From sequence record MW822008.1: DNA of 64,000 nt. The stretch is one strand, 5' to 3'. The notes under the pieces were generated by a model. It was not told where the DNA came from. It searched no databases and worked only from the letters and a program-made list of their open reading frames with translations. Positions 3,322 through 13,891 of this stretch are shown here, in pieces. Origin of the DNA: Escherichia phage BF17. Numbering within the stretch: position 1 is the stretch's first letter; every line of letters begins with the position of its first letter. The translations under genes were made by a program, and so were the position numbers.

Positions 3322-3330
3322 TGCTATAAT
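3322..3330 (+). promoter_or_regulatory. Extended -10 promoter motif TGCTATAAT upstream of the gp55-like gene
   Basis: ggTGCTATAAT about 60 nt upstream of the ATG at 3388; same 9-mer recurs at 5 other intergenic sites. Confidence 0.4.
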
Positions 3331-7415: not shown

Positions 7416-7439
7416 AGGGAGCCTTAGCTCCCTTTTTTT
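7416..7439. terminator. Hairpin + T-run terminator between convergent genes (gp46 and the Endo VII-like gene)
   Basis: agGGAGCcttaGCTCCCttttttt; A-rich on the other side, so may work in both directions. Confidence 0.6.
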
Positions 7440-7915
7440 ATATCTACCATATTTAATTTGCCTTCCTTGATAAGCTTTCTGGCTTGCTTAACACGAGCAG
7501 CATTGTTTGCACCAGGGATAACACCTAACTCTTCCAGTATTGCATTCTGTTGTCCTGCTGGGAGCCTTTTAAACTTATTCGTATCGATTGTTAGTGCAGT
7601 GTGATGTATAACTTGCTCATCTTCAGGAATGCTGTTATTACGCTCCAGATAATCCGCAAGATTTCGTAGTACCTCGTATAAGGGTTTATCGGTTAAGTGC
7701 TTCATATAGCGATTAAAGCTGTTCTGTACTTTACCTTCCCATGCGTTCACTTCGTTCTGGAGAACTTCACGACAGTGTTGATTCTCGAAGTGATAGTGAT
7801 CAAGTACTGGCTTAGTTATTGGTTCCTTAATTATAGGATCAATTCCTTTTTGCTTCTTTAGTAATTCATTTCGATAGTTTGCAGCTTCTTTACTATCTTT
7901 TAATCTTTTCTTCAT
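7424..7915 (-). CDS. Endonuclease VII-like (T4 gp49 family) junction-resolvase homolog, apparently lacking the zinc-binding cysteines
   Basis: 'VLDHYHFEN' and 'NAWEGKVQNSFNR...YEVLRNLADYLE' resemble remembered T4 Endo VII blocks ('HLDHDHELN', 'NAAEGQMKHKFNR...YLEWLENLLTYL'); only one Cys present where T4 has two CxxC pairs. Confidence 0.4.
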   Translation of the reverse strand: MKKRLKDSKEAANYRNELLKKQKGIDPIIKEPITKPVLDHYHFENQHCREVLQNEVNAWEGKVQNSFNRYMKHLTDKPLYEVLRNLADYLERNNSIPEDEQVIHHTALTIDTNKFKRLPAGQQNAILEELGVIPGANNAARVKQARKLIKEGKLNMVDIKKGS

Positions 7916-8028
7916 AAATCCCCACTAAACTAATTCTTATCAAAATATTTATGCGTTACTTCAATGTTCAAGAATTATGTACTTTTTATAAATTTTTTAT
8001 CATAATAGTGAGACACTTTTGAATTTGG

Positions 8029-8037
8029 TGCTATAAT
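8029..8037 (+). promoter_or_regulatory. Extended -10 promoter motif TGCTATAAT at the start of an ORF-free island
   Basis: tttggTGCTATAATgtt; near-identical flank to the motif at 3322. Confidence 0.4.
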
Positions 8038-8039
8038 GT

Positions 8040-8498
8040 TAATTGTAGTGATGACAATCCTGTTGAATGCAGAAATGCATATAAATTAGAACCTGATCCT
8101 ATCGAAAATGTAGATGGCAGATGAGCAGTTCAACAGTGCGATGAGCAGAAGAAACCCGTTAGATGTGGGCATAGTTTGAACCCCTCACGGCGACACGGCT
8201 CAATAAAGAACTCCGATAAGCATACAGAGAGTTCCTCGATAGATGTATAAGGATCGCACCTTACCAGATTTGCTAAGGGAGTTTATTAAGTGATTTAATA
8301 AACAGCCTGAAGTTTGATTGTATAGACTTTCAGGTGAGTGTCAGGATGATTAAGACTGACGACCGTTGCACATGACTGCGATAGAGAGAAACAGAGCAAC
8401 CCGCTTTCGTTCTTAATGAATTTTAAGAAATTCGCAATACAATAAATGCTGAAACCATCAGCGTCAAGAATTAAGAGACTTAATTGTCTCTTTTTTAT
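8040..8498 (+). ncRNA. Candidate non-coding transcript (promoter-to-terminator unit with no credible ORF)
   Basis: Bounded by the TGCTATAAT motif (8029-8037) and the terminator (8473-8498); only short plus-strand ORFs (21 aa or less) without RBS; several GC-rich hairpins (e.g. CCCCTGCGGGGGG at 8509-8521, GTCAG...CTGAC). Confidence 0.2.
8473..8498 (+). terminator. Intrinsic terminator
   Basis: AAGAGACttaattGTCTCTTttttatt (7 bp stem, 6 nt loop, T-run). Confidence 0.55.
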
Positions 8499-8710
8499 TG
8501 TCTTCATTCCCCTGCGGGGGGATGAAAATGTCTTCAACAAATCCCGTCAAGTATTAAATCTTTTAAAGTTCTTTATAATTAATTATAAGAAATGAATATG
8601 AGTTACGTAGTAACGAATATTCTTCAGCTAACGAATGAAATGAGTTAGATGAGTTCACTATAAAATAATTAATTCCTTTCATAATTCAATTCAATCAATT
8701 CTGTAGTTTA

Positions 8711-8741
8711 AAACCAAAAAAAACCAGCAACAATGTGCTGG
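8711..8741 (-). terminator. Intrinsic terminator for the minus-strand pair 8753-9798
   Basis: On the minus strand: CCAGCAcattgtTGCTGG followed by a 9-10 nt T-run (plus-strand aaaccaaaaaaaaCCAGCAacaatgTGCTGG). Confidence 0.55.
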
Positions 8742-8752
8742 CTCCTTGTGAG

Positions 8753-8962
8753 TTAGTGCTTCTCGTTTTGTTTTTTAATTTTCTTATTAAAAGACTTAAC
8801 TAATAAGTCTCTATCAATTAGTGGCATATTAAGTAGTGTTCCGTAATCAACACTTTCCATATAAACAGAACACTCCATTAATGCAGTTTTAATATCTGAC
8901 TTATTCAACTCAAATTCCTTAAGTACTTCTTGTATTTCTTCAGGAGATGAGTGGAGAAGCAT
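8753..8962 (-). CDS. Hypothetical small protein (69 aa)
   Basis: ORF in the same unit as the upstream zinc-ribbon protein; no recognisable motif. Confidence 0.4.
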   Translation of the reverse strand: MLLHSSPEEIQEVLKEFELNKSDIKTALMECSVYMESVDYGTLLNMPLIDRDLLVKSFNKKIKKQNEKH

Positions 8963-9943: not shown

Positions 9944-12142
9944 ATGGCTGTCAATACAAGTGATTACCTACTACAGCAGTTGGTTAATCAAACTAAAGAT
10001 AACAATGATAGTTTGACTGCTATCCGTGAGTTATTAGCTGAAAATATAAAGAATGATAAGAAAAAATCAGGTTCAAATAGTAAAAAGAATGGTTCCAGTT
10101 CCAGTTCTTCCAGTAATCGTGGAAATCGTGGAAGTGCACAAGCCGATGACGGGAAAGCATTTGGTAAATTGTTCAAATCACTATCTTCTGAAGTTTCTAA
10201 TGTAAGCAAAACAATGATGAACTCCAGTACCAACGTAAGTACTGTAGTAAACTCATTAGGCGTTAGTGCATCATCATTTGCTGGTTCATTAGCAATGATG
10301 CCAGGTCCAATTGGTGCAGCGGCAGCAGCATTTAAACTCGTTACTGGTGCTGGTCTTGCTGTATATAACGCACTTAATGCACAATTGGAAGTATATACCA
10401 GAATTAACAGTGCTGGTGTTGCATTGGCTGAAGGTTATGGTTCAGTACTGAAAGGTGCAGGTGCATCTATGTTGAGTATGGATGCATTCAGTGAAGCTCT
10501 ACAAACACATAGTTCTGTGGTAGCTCAATTGGATGGGGCATATGGTGATGGTGTTGCTACCTTTGGTAAATTATTAGGAACTGTTCAACAAGCTCAAAAT
10601 GAACTTGGCCTTTATGGTATTTCTCAAAAAACATTAACTGATTTAACTGCAAGAAACATTAAGTTCCAAAAACAATATGGTGGTCGTGAAGCTCTTCGTA
10701 GTATGGACCAAGCTAAAAGTACTGAACAATTCATCATGAGCATGACTAAATTCAGTAAAAGCATGGGTGAGTCCGTTGATGCATTACTAAACAAAACACA
10801 AAACCTAGATAAATCACTCGATACGCGTTCTATGCAAATTGCATTGCAGAACTACTCTGGACTATCCAGTAAAGCTGCTGTAGCAACATCTAAGGCGTTC
10901 AACGAAGCTGCGGGTGCAATGGGTGATGCAGGTGCAGATTTCCTCCGTTTGATATCACACAGATTGTCTATTGGTGGCGTACCGGATGACCTACTCACTC
11001 CAGTACTGAACCAGTTCGCTGATTTAGGTGAAAATCTTGTGCGTAGTGGTGTAACTGATTCACAAGAAATTCGTCGCCAACAATTAGAATTCGTTAAAAA
11101 GAATAAAGAATTAATTAAGCAAGATTTGCTTAACCAGATTCAATTAGGAAACACAACTGCTGCAACCTTCTACCAACAACTATTGGATATGGAAGCAACC
11201 GTAAATGAACCTAAAAATAATCCCGCTGATAAATTAACTCAATTTACTAACCGCTTCAATATGTGGATTAGTAAAGAATTCACTGAACCATTTAATACAA
11301 TGTATGCTAATACACAAAATTCAATTGTGGATTATCTTTCAGACATTGCAGACAGAACTGATGGTGCATGGGAGTTTATTGGGGAATTGGCTCTTGATGG
11401 ATTTGGGTTAGTACCTATTGCTAAAGATGCAATTGCTTACCTTGATCGTATTGGTGCTGAATTTACAGCTTGGTTGGATGGATTGGGTGCAGATATATTC
11501 GGTTCAGGTTACTCTAAAGTGTCAGAAGCATTTGATACCTTTATGAATAACTTAATGGATTTACCTGGTAACCTATGGAATTCTGTTAAAAGTTGGTTCG
11601 GTGGTGGTTCTGATAATGATATAAAACTCAATAACAGTACTGAAACCCCAGCAGAAAGCGTAAACAACATCATTGACAACGGTGTAAATAGTGTTAGTGA
11701 TTATTTTGCAGGGATGTGGGATAAGTTCAACAAATGGAACACCGCACGTAACTACAAAGAACCAAAACCACTACCATCTGATTATGCTGACAGTTTATTC
11801 AACCGTCCAGGAGTAGAACGTATTCGTCCTGTTATTGAAAAAACCAATAACGTTGCTCCAGAAATAACTGTATCTCGTAAAGATTTTGATAAAACTGCAT
11901 GGGCACCAGGTGAACCACCAGTTCCACCAAAACCTGACGATACAGAGGCAATTAAGAAGATGATAAATAATGGTAGTGCAGTGACATCGAGAACTGGACC
12001 ACCAGCACCGATTTCTGATGAAATGAAAGAAATACTCAAAAAGCTTGCCGATGTTAATGAACAATCACTATCTGCTGTACAACAGACAAATAATTATCTA
12101 AGAACTATCTCTGAAAACACCCAAGGTGAGAGAAACAGTTAA
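9944..12142 (+). CDS. Tape-measure-like or injected structural protein (732 aa, low-complexity, Gly/Ala/Ser-rich)
   Basis: ATG at 9944 after AAAGGGA; Ser run 'NGSSSSSSSNRG', hydrophobic Gly/Ala segment 'MMPGPIGAAAAAFKLVTGAGLAVY'; directly upstream of the portal gene. The track's longer ORF from 9737 overlaps the divergent gene. Confidence 0.35.
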   Translation: MAVNTSDYLLQQLVNQTKDNNDSLTAIRELLAENIKNDKKKSGSNSKKNGSSSSSSSNRGNRGSAQADDGKAFGKLFKSLSSEVSNVSKTMMNSSTNVSTVVNSLGVSASSFAGSLAMMPGPIGAAAAAFKLVTGAGLAVYNALNAQLEVYTRINSAGVALAEGYGSVLKGAGASMLSMDAFSEALQTHSSVVAQLDGAYGDGVATFGKLLGTVQQAQNELGLYGISQKTLTDLTARNIKFQKQYGGREALRSMDQAKSTEQFIMSMTKFSKSMGESVDALLNKTQNLDKSLDTRSMQIALQNYSGLSSKAAVATSKAFNEAAGAMGDAGADFLRLISHRLSIGGVPDDLLTPVLNQFADLGENLVRSGVTDSQEIRRQQLEFVKKNKELIKQDLLNQIQLGNTTAATFYQQLLDMEATVNEPKNNPADKLTQFTNRFNMWISKEFTEPFNTMYANTQNSIVDYLSDIADRTDGAWEFIGELALDGFGLVPIAKDAIAYLDRIGAEFTAWLDGLGADIFGSGYSKVSEAFDTFMNNLMDLPGNLWNSVKSWFGGGSDNDIKLNNSTETPAESVNNIIDNGVNSVSDYFAGMWDKFNKWNTARNYKEPKPLPSDYADSLFNRPGVERIRPVIEKTNNVAPEITVSRKDFDKTAWAPGEPPVPPKPDDTEAIKKMINNGSAVTSRTGPPAPISDEMKEILKKLADVNEQSLSAVQQTNNYLRTISENTQGERNS

Positions 12143-12154
12143 GGACGAACAATA

Positions 12155-13891
12155 ATGAGTTGGAAACGACATATGACAATGGGGAGATCGAAGTTATCGG
12201 TTGTCCCTAATCAGTCCAGTAATAGCAACAAATCAACAGGAACGAAAACAAATTTCGCTTCCTATCTTCCAGTAGTATACAATGGTTTAGCTAACCGTAC
12301 TGAACGTTATAGTCAGTATGAACAGATGGACCAAGATCCTGAAATTAGAACAGCACTTAATATCATTGCTGACTTCTGTACACAAAGTACTGAAGATTTT
12401 GGTCTTCCATATAAAATCAAATATAAAGATGATATTGGTGATACAGAAGTAACTACTATTGAAGACCGCTTGGATGCATGGACTGAACAAAATGATTTTA
12501 AAACCAGAATGTATGAAATTGTACGTGGCCTATTAAAATACGGTGACCAATTCTTCATTCGTGACCCAGAAACATTTGACTGGTACTGGGTAAGCCCAAA
12601 AAACGTTGAACAAGTATTCGTTAACGAAGCAACCGGAAAAACCCCTGTAATTTATTATATCCGTGACGTATCTTTGAATCTTAAAGATAAAGTGTTTAGT
12701 AACTTGCAAGTTGGTTTTGACAAAACTGCATATCCTGGTGCAATCCCTACCACATTAGGTGGCGGTGGTTCAGTAGCAGCAGGTGGTGCATCTGGTTTTA
12801 CTAACCAAGGAAACTCTGCTGACCCATTCAGTACTAACGGTCGTCTTGATGTTATTCCAGTTGGTGCAGAACACGTAATTCATCTAACCCTAAATACAGG
12901 ACAAGATGGAGTTTGGCCTTTTGGTACTAGTATACTTGAAGATGTTTTCAAAGTCTATAAACAAAAAGAATTACTTGAAGATAGTATTATTATCTATCGT
13001 GTTCAACGTGCTCCAGAGCGTCGTGTATTTAAAATCGACGTTGGTGATATGCAAACTCACCAAGCAATGGCATACGTAGAACGATTCAAAAATGAAATTC
13101 ACCAAAGACGTATCCCTTCAAATAAAGGTGGCAGTACTTCTCTAATGGATGCAGCATATAATCCATTAAGTATTCTAGAAGATTACTTCTTCCCACAAAC
13201 TTCTGAAGGTCGTGGTTCAGATGTACAAACACTTCCTGGTGGTGATAACTTAGGTCAGATTGATGACTTGCGTTACTTCAACAATAAATTGATTCGTGGA
13301 TTGCAAATTCCAGCTTCATATCTACCGCAAGGTCCAGATGATGGTGGTGTATCACTATTTGGTGATGGTGCAACACAAGCAATGGCAAGTGAATTACGTT
13401 TTAATAACCAATGTATGCGTTATCAACGTTTGGTTGCAAAACTATTTGATGCAGAATTTAAACGTTTTATGGTTAAAAATGGATATAACATTAGTACTTC
13501 ATCTTTTGAAGTAATTATGAATCCACCTATTAACTTGGCTTCTTATCGTAAAGCGGAACTAGATGCTAAACTAATTAACACCTATCTCCCACTTAACGAT
13601 CTGCCATATATGGCAAAACAAACTATTCTTGAAAAAATGGGCTTCTCTAAAGCTGATATTGTTAAGAATGAGCAAATGTGGCTCCAAGAAAATCCACAAG
13701 ATGGTTCTGCTCCGTCAAGTGGTGAAGAAGATGCTGCTGGGTTGCAATCTGTTGGTATAGATGCTCCTAACGATCCTGGTATGGATTTGGGTGTTGATGG
13801 TGACGGTAACTTAGAAAGTGCCGATGCTGAATACCAAGAACAACAAGGAAGTGCAGGTTTTAACCCGAATAATTTAGGCGATTCTTTTTAA
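12155..13891 (+). CDS. 20: Portal protein (T4 gp20 family)
   Basis: 'IIYRVQRAPERRVFKIDVGDM' and 'EDYFFPQTSEGRGSDVQTLPGGDNLGQIDDLRYF' match remembered T4 gp20 blocks ('[21 protein letters not shown]', 'EDYWL...VDTLPGADNTGNMEDIRWF'). Confidence 0.85.
   Translation: MSWKRHMTMGRSKLSVVPNQSSNSNKSTGTKTNFASYLPVVYNGLANRTERYSQYEQMDQDPEIRTALNIIADFCTQSTEDFGLPYKIKYKDDIGDTEVTTIEDRLDAWTEQNDFKTRMYEIVRGLLKYGDQFFIRDPETFDWYWVSPKNVEQVFVNEATGKTPVIYYIRDVSLNLKDKVFSNLQVGFDKTAYPGAIPTTLGGGGSVAAGGASGFTNQGNSADPFSTNGRLDVIPVGAEHVIHLTLNTGQDGVWPFGTSILEDVFKVYKQKELLEDSIIIYRVQRAPERRVFKIDVGDMQTHQAMAYVERFKNEIHQRRIPSNKGGSTSLMDAAYNPLSILEDYFFPQTSEGRGSDVQTLPGGDNLGQIDDLRYFNNKLIRGLQIPASYLPQGPDDGGVSLFGDGATQAMASELRFNNQCMRYQRLVAKLFDAEFKRFMVKNGYNISTSSFEVIMNPPINLASYRKAELDAKLINTYLPLNDLPYMAKQTILEKMGFSKADIVKNEQMWLQENPQDGSAPSSGEEDAAGLQSVGIDAPNDPGMDLGVDGDGNLESADAEYQEQQGSAGFNPNNLGDSF

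Follow-up and report, generated by a model that had tools for sequence, protein, structure and literature searches.

A probable new family of large structured RNA genes in Rak2-like jumbo phages

In the 64,000-nucleotide stretch of Escherichia phage BF17 analyzed here (sequence record MW822008.1; hereafter the window), positions ~8008–8625 of the plus strand very probably form a free-standing gene for a structured RNA of ~450–510 nucleotides that belongs to a new family, apparently undescribed so far. Literature searches returned no earlier description of such an RNA in Rak2-like phages, the 2026 genome paper on phage fEgEco12 included. The gene lies in a gap (7916–8752) that an earlier reading of the letters alone (the sequence-only reading) had taken for an island free of credible open reading frames (ORFs), with its own promoter and terminator, and had proposed to be either a noncoding RNA or a replication origin. 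Every feature listed there was found at its stated coordinates or no more than one base away. The noncoding RNA proposal is strongly supported by the conserved promoter, by covariation in the terminator, and by ample strand-specific covariation that fits a complex fold of the plus strand.

The window phage is an Asteriusvirus (the 121Q/PBECO4 group, Rak2-like jumbo phages), so that the "T4-type" framing of the sequence-only reading is right only loosely, the phage not being T4 proper. Over the region, the window is 99%–100% identical to the Asteriusvirus phages EC.P1, vB_Ec-M-J, WPEC3, and fEgEco12, and 93%–97% identical to 121Q and PBECO4. In phages of other genera (Munch, fENko-Kae01, Serratia BF, the Erwinia SNUABM phages, GAP32, CBB, Yersinia fHe-Yen9, and XbC2), a core at 8074–8558 keeps 67%–74% DNA identity between flanks that do not align at all, which is far beyond chance; RaK2 and K64-1 align with part of the core. 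The conservation in related genomes on which the sequence-only reading had made its proposal depend is thus present, and reaches across genera. There are ~290 matching places in 71 phage records, with 4–5 per genome and 2–3 in the RaK2 group. Phage TH47, the core of which is identical to that of the window, has four copies, at ~49.5, 146.2, 262.1 (the window copy), and 345.7 kb; they share one strand and are 72%–80% identical to one another. Our covariance model recovers exactly four copies in TH47 and one in the window, and no further paralogues were found inside the 64 kb. Copy positions are alike across collinear genera (~30–40, 175–182, and 258–263 kb). The window/121Q copy sits between convergent and divergent genes, and copies C and D lie within co-directional arrays; regardless of its neighbors, the module retains a promoter and a terminator of its own.

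Structure was assessed in an alignment of 34 nonredundant full-length members (<97% identity). These members were gathered by pattern scans of IMG/VR, metagenomes, and GTDB genomes and then by nhmmer, with 57 true matches among the matches listed. The scan pattern, GACCGTTGC-N24-30-GCAACCCGC, was too loose and yielded at least 240 loci, mostly chance matches in GC-rich genomes that nhmmer removed. In the alignment, length-variable insertions occur at hairpin tips and paired substitutions are visible by eye. RNAalifold predicts 74 pairs, 48 of them with at least one double-sided change. We tested a model of 100 pairs in 19 helices against two kinds of controls, in which the partners were slid by 1–3 columns or the columns were shuffled 500 times. 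Standard pairs form in 94.1% of cells (40%–44% in the slid controls), compensatory changes are seen at 57 pairs (slid, 21–29) and in 489 cells (slid, 50–81), and the covariation score is 0.417 (slid, 0.06–0.09). None of the 500 column shuffles equals any observed pairing measure. Compensatory change well above controls is what a structured RNA should display, and structure prediction with covariation in relatives, a check that the sequence-only reading had proposed, supports ~19 helices. The covariance model (R1) scores the window copy at 124.4 bits (E 1.8e-30).

A long-range pseudoknot, absent from the nested model, was found by an all-against-all scan of alignment columns. Its 5′ strand, AUUGUA (8317–8322, plus strand), is the loop of a 13-bp stem, and its 3′ strand is UACAAU (8438–8443, plus strand). 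All six pairs (6/6) are compensated, as in AUUGUA/UACAAU versus GUCGAA/UUCGAC, and 99% of cells are paired, compared to 25%–44% when slid. G-U cells outnumber A-C cells by 258 to 61, which points to a fold of the plus strand, an asymmetry that is somewhat inflated since the structure was derived on that strand. The conserved promoter and the terminator agree with the G-U asymmetry, and we assign the fold to the plus strand. Single-sequence folding energy is modestly unusual and does not separate the strands (z-scores of −2.55 and −2.44); the evidence therefore rests on comparison between sequences.

The same comparison bears on whether the element works only as double-stranded DNA, for instance as a protein-binding array, a packaging signal, or a recombination site, while folding of a single strand plays no part. 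Proteins could bind at the conserved palindromic C-run/G-run and at the repeated CGTCAAG, and several copies per genome would suit such sites. However, the ~57 compensated pairs and a pseudoknot joining segments 120 nucleotides apart would be meaningless in a duplex, the G-U excess is strand-specific, and the terminal repeats mapped in fEgEco12 have no copy in their vicinity. We consider this explanation effectively excluded, leaving it a very small residual chance.

The promoter is predicted on the plus strand at 8008–8037. It consists of a −35-like GTGAGACA (8008–8015), positioned 14 nucleotides upstream of the second element, and the extended −10 TGCTATAAT (8029–8037), the recurring motif that the sequence-only reading had placed there. 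A promoter scan gives TGCTATAAT 10/12, with the TG extension, and transcription would be expected to start at ~8043–8045. At the aligned position, TGnTATAAT/TATACT is found in 30 of the 34 family members, and three more have the −10 only; a conserved sigma-70-type promoter of this kind is to be expected of an independently transcribed noncoding RNA gene. The recurrence of the motif is real, with TGnTATAAT occurring 13 times in the window on the plus strand (at 3322, 8029, 29939, 31977, 35166, 35242, 40414, 44859, 45267, 51690, 56009, 58167, and 62101) and never on the minus strand. A GGGACA/GAGACA-like sequence precedes ~9 of the 13 sites by ~14 nucleotides. In phage CBB, promoters termed "divergent RpoD-like" that have a TGAAACG −35 have been reported, most of them in front of DNA-synthesis genes (PMC5259590), and the TGnTATAAT class of the window matches this "TGAAACG" class. 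A candidate late promoter after CGUCA was dismissed, as the TATAAATA-type motif is present in few members only. One paralogue, TH47 copy B (L004 45948–46612; genome ~146.0–146.6 kb), has no recognizable −10 or −35. Its flanks are matched by just one record besides TH47, and the nearest sequence to its core (86%) is the copy that UE-S1 has at the window's locus; this copy may be a recent recombinant or be transcribed by read-through.

Downstream of the promoter, all on the plus strand, comes a variable 5′ leader (8042–8092). It holds a hairpin, ATTGT/ACAAT (8042–8058), a semi-conserved ACAAYYCUGNUUGA motif, and a GAAA-tetraloop hairpin, TGCA-GAAA-TGCA (8068–8079). Tentatively, UUGA at 8063–8066 may pair with UCAA at 8547–8550 as a closing helix, the changes there being one-sided only. 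The conserved structured core (8093–8468) contains ~15 helices, multi-helix junctions, and the pseudoknot. Helices backed by covariation pair 8093–8103 with 8113–8120, 8125–8129 with 8135–8139, 8142–8146 with 8198–8202, and 8156–8159 with 8187–8190 in the first part of the core; 8208–8213 with 8229–8234, 8281–8284 with 8299–8302, 8304–8316 with 8323–8335, and 8338–8343 with 8357–8363 in the middle; and 8377–8381 with 8432–8436, 8384–8388 with 8404–8408, and 8410–8414 with 8425–8429 toward the end. Strings that are invariant and unpaired include GACCGUUGC, GAGCAACCCGCUU, GAUAGA, CUAAGGGAG, and CGUCA. The GC-rich hairpins that had been noticed in this AT-rich genome are present, namely CCCCTGCGGGGGG at 8509–8521 and GTCAGgatgattaagaCTGAC at 8340–8360 (GTCAG...CTGAC). 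The direct repeat GATGAGCAG also exists as described, at 8120–8128 and 8140–8148, but is not conserved as a repeat in relatives; judged from the fold, it is a by-product of two helices.

The core is followed by an intrinsic terminator (8473–8496, plus strand), whose stem AAGAGAC/GTCTCTT (8473–8479/8486–8492) precedes a T-run to 8496. The terminator that had been claimed at 8473–8498 is there, with its hairpin at 8473–8492. Terminator-like sites number six in the surrounding 2.6 kb, compared to 1.1 expected. The stem (helix 18) covaries, and a T-run follows the hairpin in every member that has one, so that 26 of the 34 members combine a covarying terminator hairpin with a U-run and the window copy is among those with an intrinsic terminator. 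The main transcript is most likely ~450 nucleotides long (~8044–8496), and 8496 is the probable 3′ end of this RNA.

Conservation does not stop at the terminator, and the view that the island ends there was mistaken: the conserved element continues to ~8551, with a further hairpin at 8595–8624. The 3′ extension (8503–8551, plus strand) begins with a G-rich hairpin, UUCAUUCCCC-UGC-GGGGGGAUGAA (8503–8526), continues with CAAAUCCCGUCAAG to 8551, and is kept in all paralogues and genera. The G-rich hairpin (helix 19) is 93% paired, mostly with one-sided U/C changes opposite G. An AT-rich spacer of variable sequence (8552–8594, plus strand) separates the extension from a 3′ hairpin module (8595–8624, plus strand), GAAUAUGAGUUAC-GUA-GUAACGAAUAUUC, delineated by per-sequence folds of 30 members. 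The window version is a short form of a long imperfect hairpin, the loop of which is GAACGnAGUGA in most relatives.

Three further observations concern the architecture of the family. CGUCAAG is doubled across the terminator (8462–8468 and 8545–8551), and the two copies change together in relatives, which have CGUCAAG in both places or CGUCAG in both; this suggests a shared partner or alternative pairings. One insertion module (consensus roughly ..UACAAUAUAGAUCCGUCCAAAAUU..) is found in some paralogues only, at the tips of two different helices (alignment columns ~395–535 and ~657–695). These tips correspond to ~8285–8298 and ~8415–8424 in the window, whose copy lacks the module. The insertion looks like a modular peripheral or protein-binding element. 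Lastly, the D-type paralogues, which have no terminator after the core, carry a strong hairpin and U-run right after the promoter (GGUGACA...UGUCACC-UUUUUUU), at L288 3536–3572 in 121Q copy D and at the same place in L002, L024, L038, and L047. The arrangement resembles a terminator, placed at the extreme 5′ end of the RNA.

The region is flanked by a minus-strand endonuclease VII-like gene (7424–7915) and a 69-codon minus-strand ORF (8753–8962). By annotation, gene order at the syntenic UE-S1/121Q loci runs from a sigma factor through a gp47/gp46-type recombination nuclease and endonuclease VII (minus strand) to the gap, and beyond it to a small ORF and a baseplate hub gene (minus strand), a structural protein, and the portal. 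The statement that the gap holds no credible ORF needs qualification, as mechanical ORFs of 81 amino acids (minus strand, 8295–8540) and 49 amino acids (plus strand, 8446–8595) exist; it stands in the sense that none is conserved across the 34 relatives, and in particular no conserved small ORF was found among them. Many GenBank records annotate one to five "hypothetical protein" coding sequences over the RNA element, such as RaK2 F403_gp290/ORF245 (L030 1510–1716), and the UE-S1 record labels part of it "repeat_region". Could the element encode one or more small conserved proteins after all, as these records and the ORFs of 49–81 amino acids in the window would have it? The longest stop-free stretch shifts strand, frame, and position among the 34 members, even between those that are ~97% identical, and an 83-codon open stretch is already gone in 121Q despite 96.8% identity of the core (8030–8560). 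Single-nucleotide indels occur inside the most conserved blocks of the family alignments, and substitutions pair across helices with no three-base period. A mini-ORF after GGGGGG-AUG was likewise dismissed, its frame being broken by indels. We regard a coding function as effectively excluded, with next to no probability left to it, and the GenBank coding sequence calls on the element as very probably spurious; the annotation of many records is to be corrected accordingly, with their "hypothetical proteins" sitting on an RNA element.

The RNA is not confined to phages. A blastn search of 5,426 complete Escherichia coli genomes placed it in two chromosomes. In E. coli LR-29-1 (NZ_AP027515.1 3466976–3491514, reverse complement; L292), an intact copy is part of a ~10.6-kb island between ffs and ybaA (L292 7958–18302, with the RNA at 12001–12539), and the same island is found in strain EEC_W5. 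The island encodes a tyrosine integrase split by IS3, a serine recombinase, and candidate defense genes (DuOB, DUF488, and mSLOG/DUF4326; PADLOC PDC-M45). Only the ~545-bp RNA core of the island matches phages, the best match (80.6%) being an Eneladusvirus copy near 174.5 kb. Of the E. coli genomes, 91 have other parts of the island, but only two have the RNA. We also observed an iteron-like ATTATCGATCGTT, twice in tandem with an inverted partial copy (L292 12969–13022), ~0.45 kb downstream of the island RNA within a 0.7-kb unannotated stretch; there are two or three units only, and such repeats were not seen in the other islands.

Those other islands are more varied. A Buttiauxella metagenome-assembled genome has the order integrase, RNA (L195 2852–3416), convergent CI-like S24 repressor, and resolvase, and an Enterobacteriaceae metagenome-assembled genome has thiM/thiD, the RNA (L235 6382–7119), and a CI-like repressor. 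Two metagenome contigs carry the RNA with large serine recombinases (L095 8120–8769 and L129 7834–8607), and a third carries it with tilS and two ParB/RepB-like genes (L050 7085–7752). In L195, L095, and L235, the RNA runs convergently toward the 3′ end of the CI-like S24 repressor gene. Island copies keep the promoter and 92%–94% of consensus pairs, as phage copies do. Their nearest phage relative is L032, a contig on which the gene order is that of the window (gp47, gp46, endonuclease VII, RNA, baseplate protein). These further island copies, next to tyrosine or large serine recombinases, may belong to satellites or defense islands linked to Rak2-like phages. A 2025 paper shows for Pseudomonas that jumbo phages can move integrase-plus-defense islands lying beside a small-RNA gene (PMC12595487); we read it as a precedent for relationships between islands and jumbo phages, not as evidence about this RNA.

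As to function, we favor a trans-acting folded RNA engaged in phage–host conflict, to which we give roughly even chances. Host RNA polymerase would transcribe the gene from the extended −10 promoter, and the RNA would act through its folded shape, as a protein-binding scaffold, a decoy, or a catalytic RNA, and neither by simple antisense pairing nor as a cis signal for neighboring genes. Trans action is favored because the module is self-contained, with promoter, fold, and terminator in all contexts, even where there are no co-directional downstream genes; because it behaves as portable cargo in islands; and because it has many invariant junction and loop bases, which are typical of tertiary folds or bound partners. 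Its presence in defense and mobile islands suggests that its role would be tied to phage–host or phage–island conflict, and such a role would explain why these islands have RNA copies of their own. A bolder version is possible, if doubtful: that the RNA is a new ribozyme or ribonucleoprotein core, which Rak2-like phages need in the form of 4–5 specialized paralogues and which bacterial defense and mobile islands have repeatedly stolen, as a decoy that poisons the phage machinery or as a handle for exploiting an infecting jumbo phage.

A number of points weigh against a stable, trans-acting RNA. Besides the inflation of the G-U asymmetry and the modest folding energy already given, the terminator hairpin is absent in 8 of the 34 members, and a simple model of a terminated stable RNA leaves this unexplained. 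Nor does that model account for the conserved segment past the terminator, where the G-rich hairpin at 8503–8526, CGUCAAG, the AT-rich spacer, and the last hairpin lie. Transcription, both RNA ends, and stability are what we infer from sequence. Four or five diverged copies at conserved positions would be at least as natural for a cis-acting element.

The segment past the terminator is also where an RNA-primed replication origin, the other role proposed at the outset, would have its business. The folded promoter-driven transcript would then be a pre-primer, as in ColE1 RNA II or T4 ori(uvsY)/ori(34): the structure would hold the RNA off the template until 8503–8594, and a persistent R-loop formed there would be extended by the phage replisome. 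The 350-kb genome would have its origins in the 4–5 copies, and islands would have taken up the module so as to be amplified upon jumbo phage infection. We find an origin unlikely on balance, with sizable arguments on either side. The conserved G-run hairpin and AT-rich spacer past the terminator would suit a hybrid region, yet in 26 of the 34 members a terminator and U-run stand just upstream of it. ColE1 RNA II is a precedent for the ~500-nucleotide structured-transcript format, but ~19 helices, a pseudoknot, and invariant loop bases go deeper than in known primer RNAs. The copies are scattered along the genome and share one orientation, as the TH47 positions illustrate, and they occupy similar places across collinear genera; against this, cumulative GC skew has no inflection at TH47 copies B, C, and D. 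Among the four, only the window copy (copy A) lies at a skew change, and this coincides with a switch in gene orientation; we set GC skew aside as an origin test, since it tracks gene orientation only. T4 origins use middle-mode promoters. The promoter here is of the "TGAAACG" class, which in CBB is mostly found upstream of DNA-synthesis genes (PMC5259590). The bare module has been captured by chromosomal islands, and integrase-plus-defense islands are moved by jumbo phages (PMC12595487), both of which would be in keeping with an origin. However, PLSDB plasmids gave no match to the module, and it is missing from most relatives of the E. coli island, so that it is not the backbone origin of that island.

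A cis-acting role in transcription is prompted by the layout of the element itself, in which a structured domain is directly followed by an intrinsic terminator with conserved sequence past it. The element could be a giant processive-antitermination RNA (HK022 put/EAR-like) or a leader/attenuator; by acting on the polymerase that made it, the nascent RNA would decide whether the terminator at 8473–8496 is read through into downstream genes. The duplication of CGUCAAG on either side of the terminator would fit, as would the eight members without a terminator, which must hence read through. The genomic contexts are divided. In 121Q, copies C and D lie right upstream of co-directional genes, and the 3′ hairpin abuts or overlaps the annotated next start, but the window copy and its syntenic counterparts precede opposite-strand genes, and the CI-like repressor gene of islands L195, L095, and L235 is met at its 3′ end by the convergent RNA. 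Downstream genes vary among paralogues and have no common functional theme. No known antitermination RNA comes within several-fold of the element's size. We consider a cis-acting element quite improbable.

Apart from the ribosome, RNase P, introns, and a few "ornate" orphans, there are few large RNAs whose folds are complex and pseudoknotted, and past new classes of such RNA have tended to bring new biochemistry. The present family occurs in cultivable E. coli phages (121Q, PBECO4, phAPEC6, fEgEco12, and relatives). It offers dozens of diverged sequences from which to study structure, natural paralogues that either have or lack peripheral modules, and an independent chromosomal version in E. 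coli islands that also hold candidate defense genes. If the RNA is trans-acting, it would be a new player in phage–host conflict. Were it an RNA-primed origin, jumbo myoviruses would have their first origin family defined by sequence, which would also explain how islands can ride on them.

How does this RNA compare with those already known? A covariance-model scan, suggested by the sequence-only reading as a check, gave nothing above chance with the 4227 models of Rfam 15, whether for the 2-kb region, the 521-nucleotide RNA alone, or eight other members. The best Rfam match, Arrc14, scores 36.6 against a threshold of 99, and falls on the neighboring minus-strand terminator hairpin (8718–8759). 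That hairpin, terminator-like in both directions, is at the 3′ end of the 69-codon minus-strand ORF and lies outside the RNA element. No tRNA or tmRNA genes were predicted by ARAGORN anywhere in the window. Group I and group II introns were rejected as candidates, there being no Rfam match and the element being intergenic, with its own promoter in 33 of the 34 members.

RNase P RNA is of similar size and shares long-range pairing, but the new RNA differs from it in having several paralogues. Short strings of M1 RNA, ACGACCAGUGCAAC..AGAGAGCAAACCGCC, presumably resemble ACGACCGUUGCAC..ACAGAGCAACCCGCU here, a likeness that no model supports. We rejected a bacterial RNase P RNA, as the 521-nucleotide RNA gave no model match even at E<=10 and P4-type conserved regions were not found. 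In the distantly related jumbo phage PA5oct, RNA-seq revealed ncRNA001–004, transcripts of 236–619 nucleotides that are likewise intergenic and ORF-free, two of them very abundant (PMC7318152). Our covariance model gives at best 7.4 bits (E 0.36) for ncRNA002 and ncRNA004, which are thus rejected as family members; the test covered these two of the four.

HK022 put and EAR RNAs occur in several copies per genome, oriented with transcription. Like them, the new RNA is predicted to be a folded nascent RNA downstream of a promoter and upstream of a terminator; unlike them, it is ~5–7 times larger, several of its copies have no co-directional downstream genes, and it has no Rfam match. The folding of ColE1 RNA II matters for its action, and T4 has several origins per genome, with middle-type promoters. 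The new RNA resembles ColE1 RNA II and T4 ori(uvsY) and ori(34) in its promoter-driven transcript of ~500 nucleotides with G-rich and AT-rich parts near the 3′ end. It differs from them in that there is no sequence similarity, a terminator precedes the G-rich part, and the structure is far more conserved and complex.

There is also a likeness in format to GOLLD, ROOL, and OLE. These RNAs have their own promoters and are linked to phages, prophages, or mobile DNA, and their function could not be deduced from context. They share with the new RNA a length of several hundred nucleotides, many covarying helices, pseudoknots, and highly conserved unpaired bases. The Rfam models for GOLLD, ROOL, and OLE have no sequence or structure match to the new RNA. 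Unlike the three, it belongs to Rak2-like phages of Enterobacteriaceae, comes as 4–5 diverged paralogues, and extends past its terminator.

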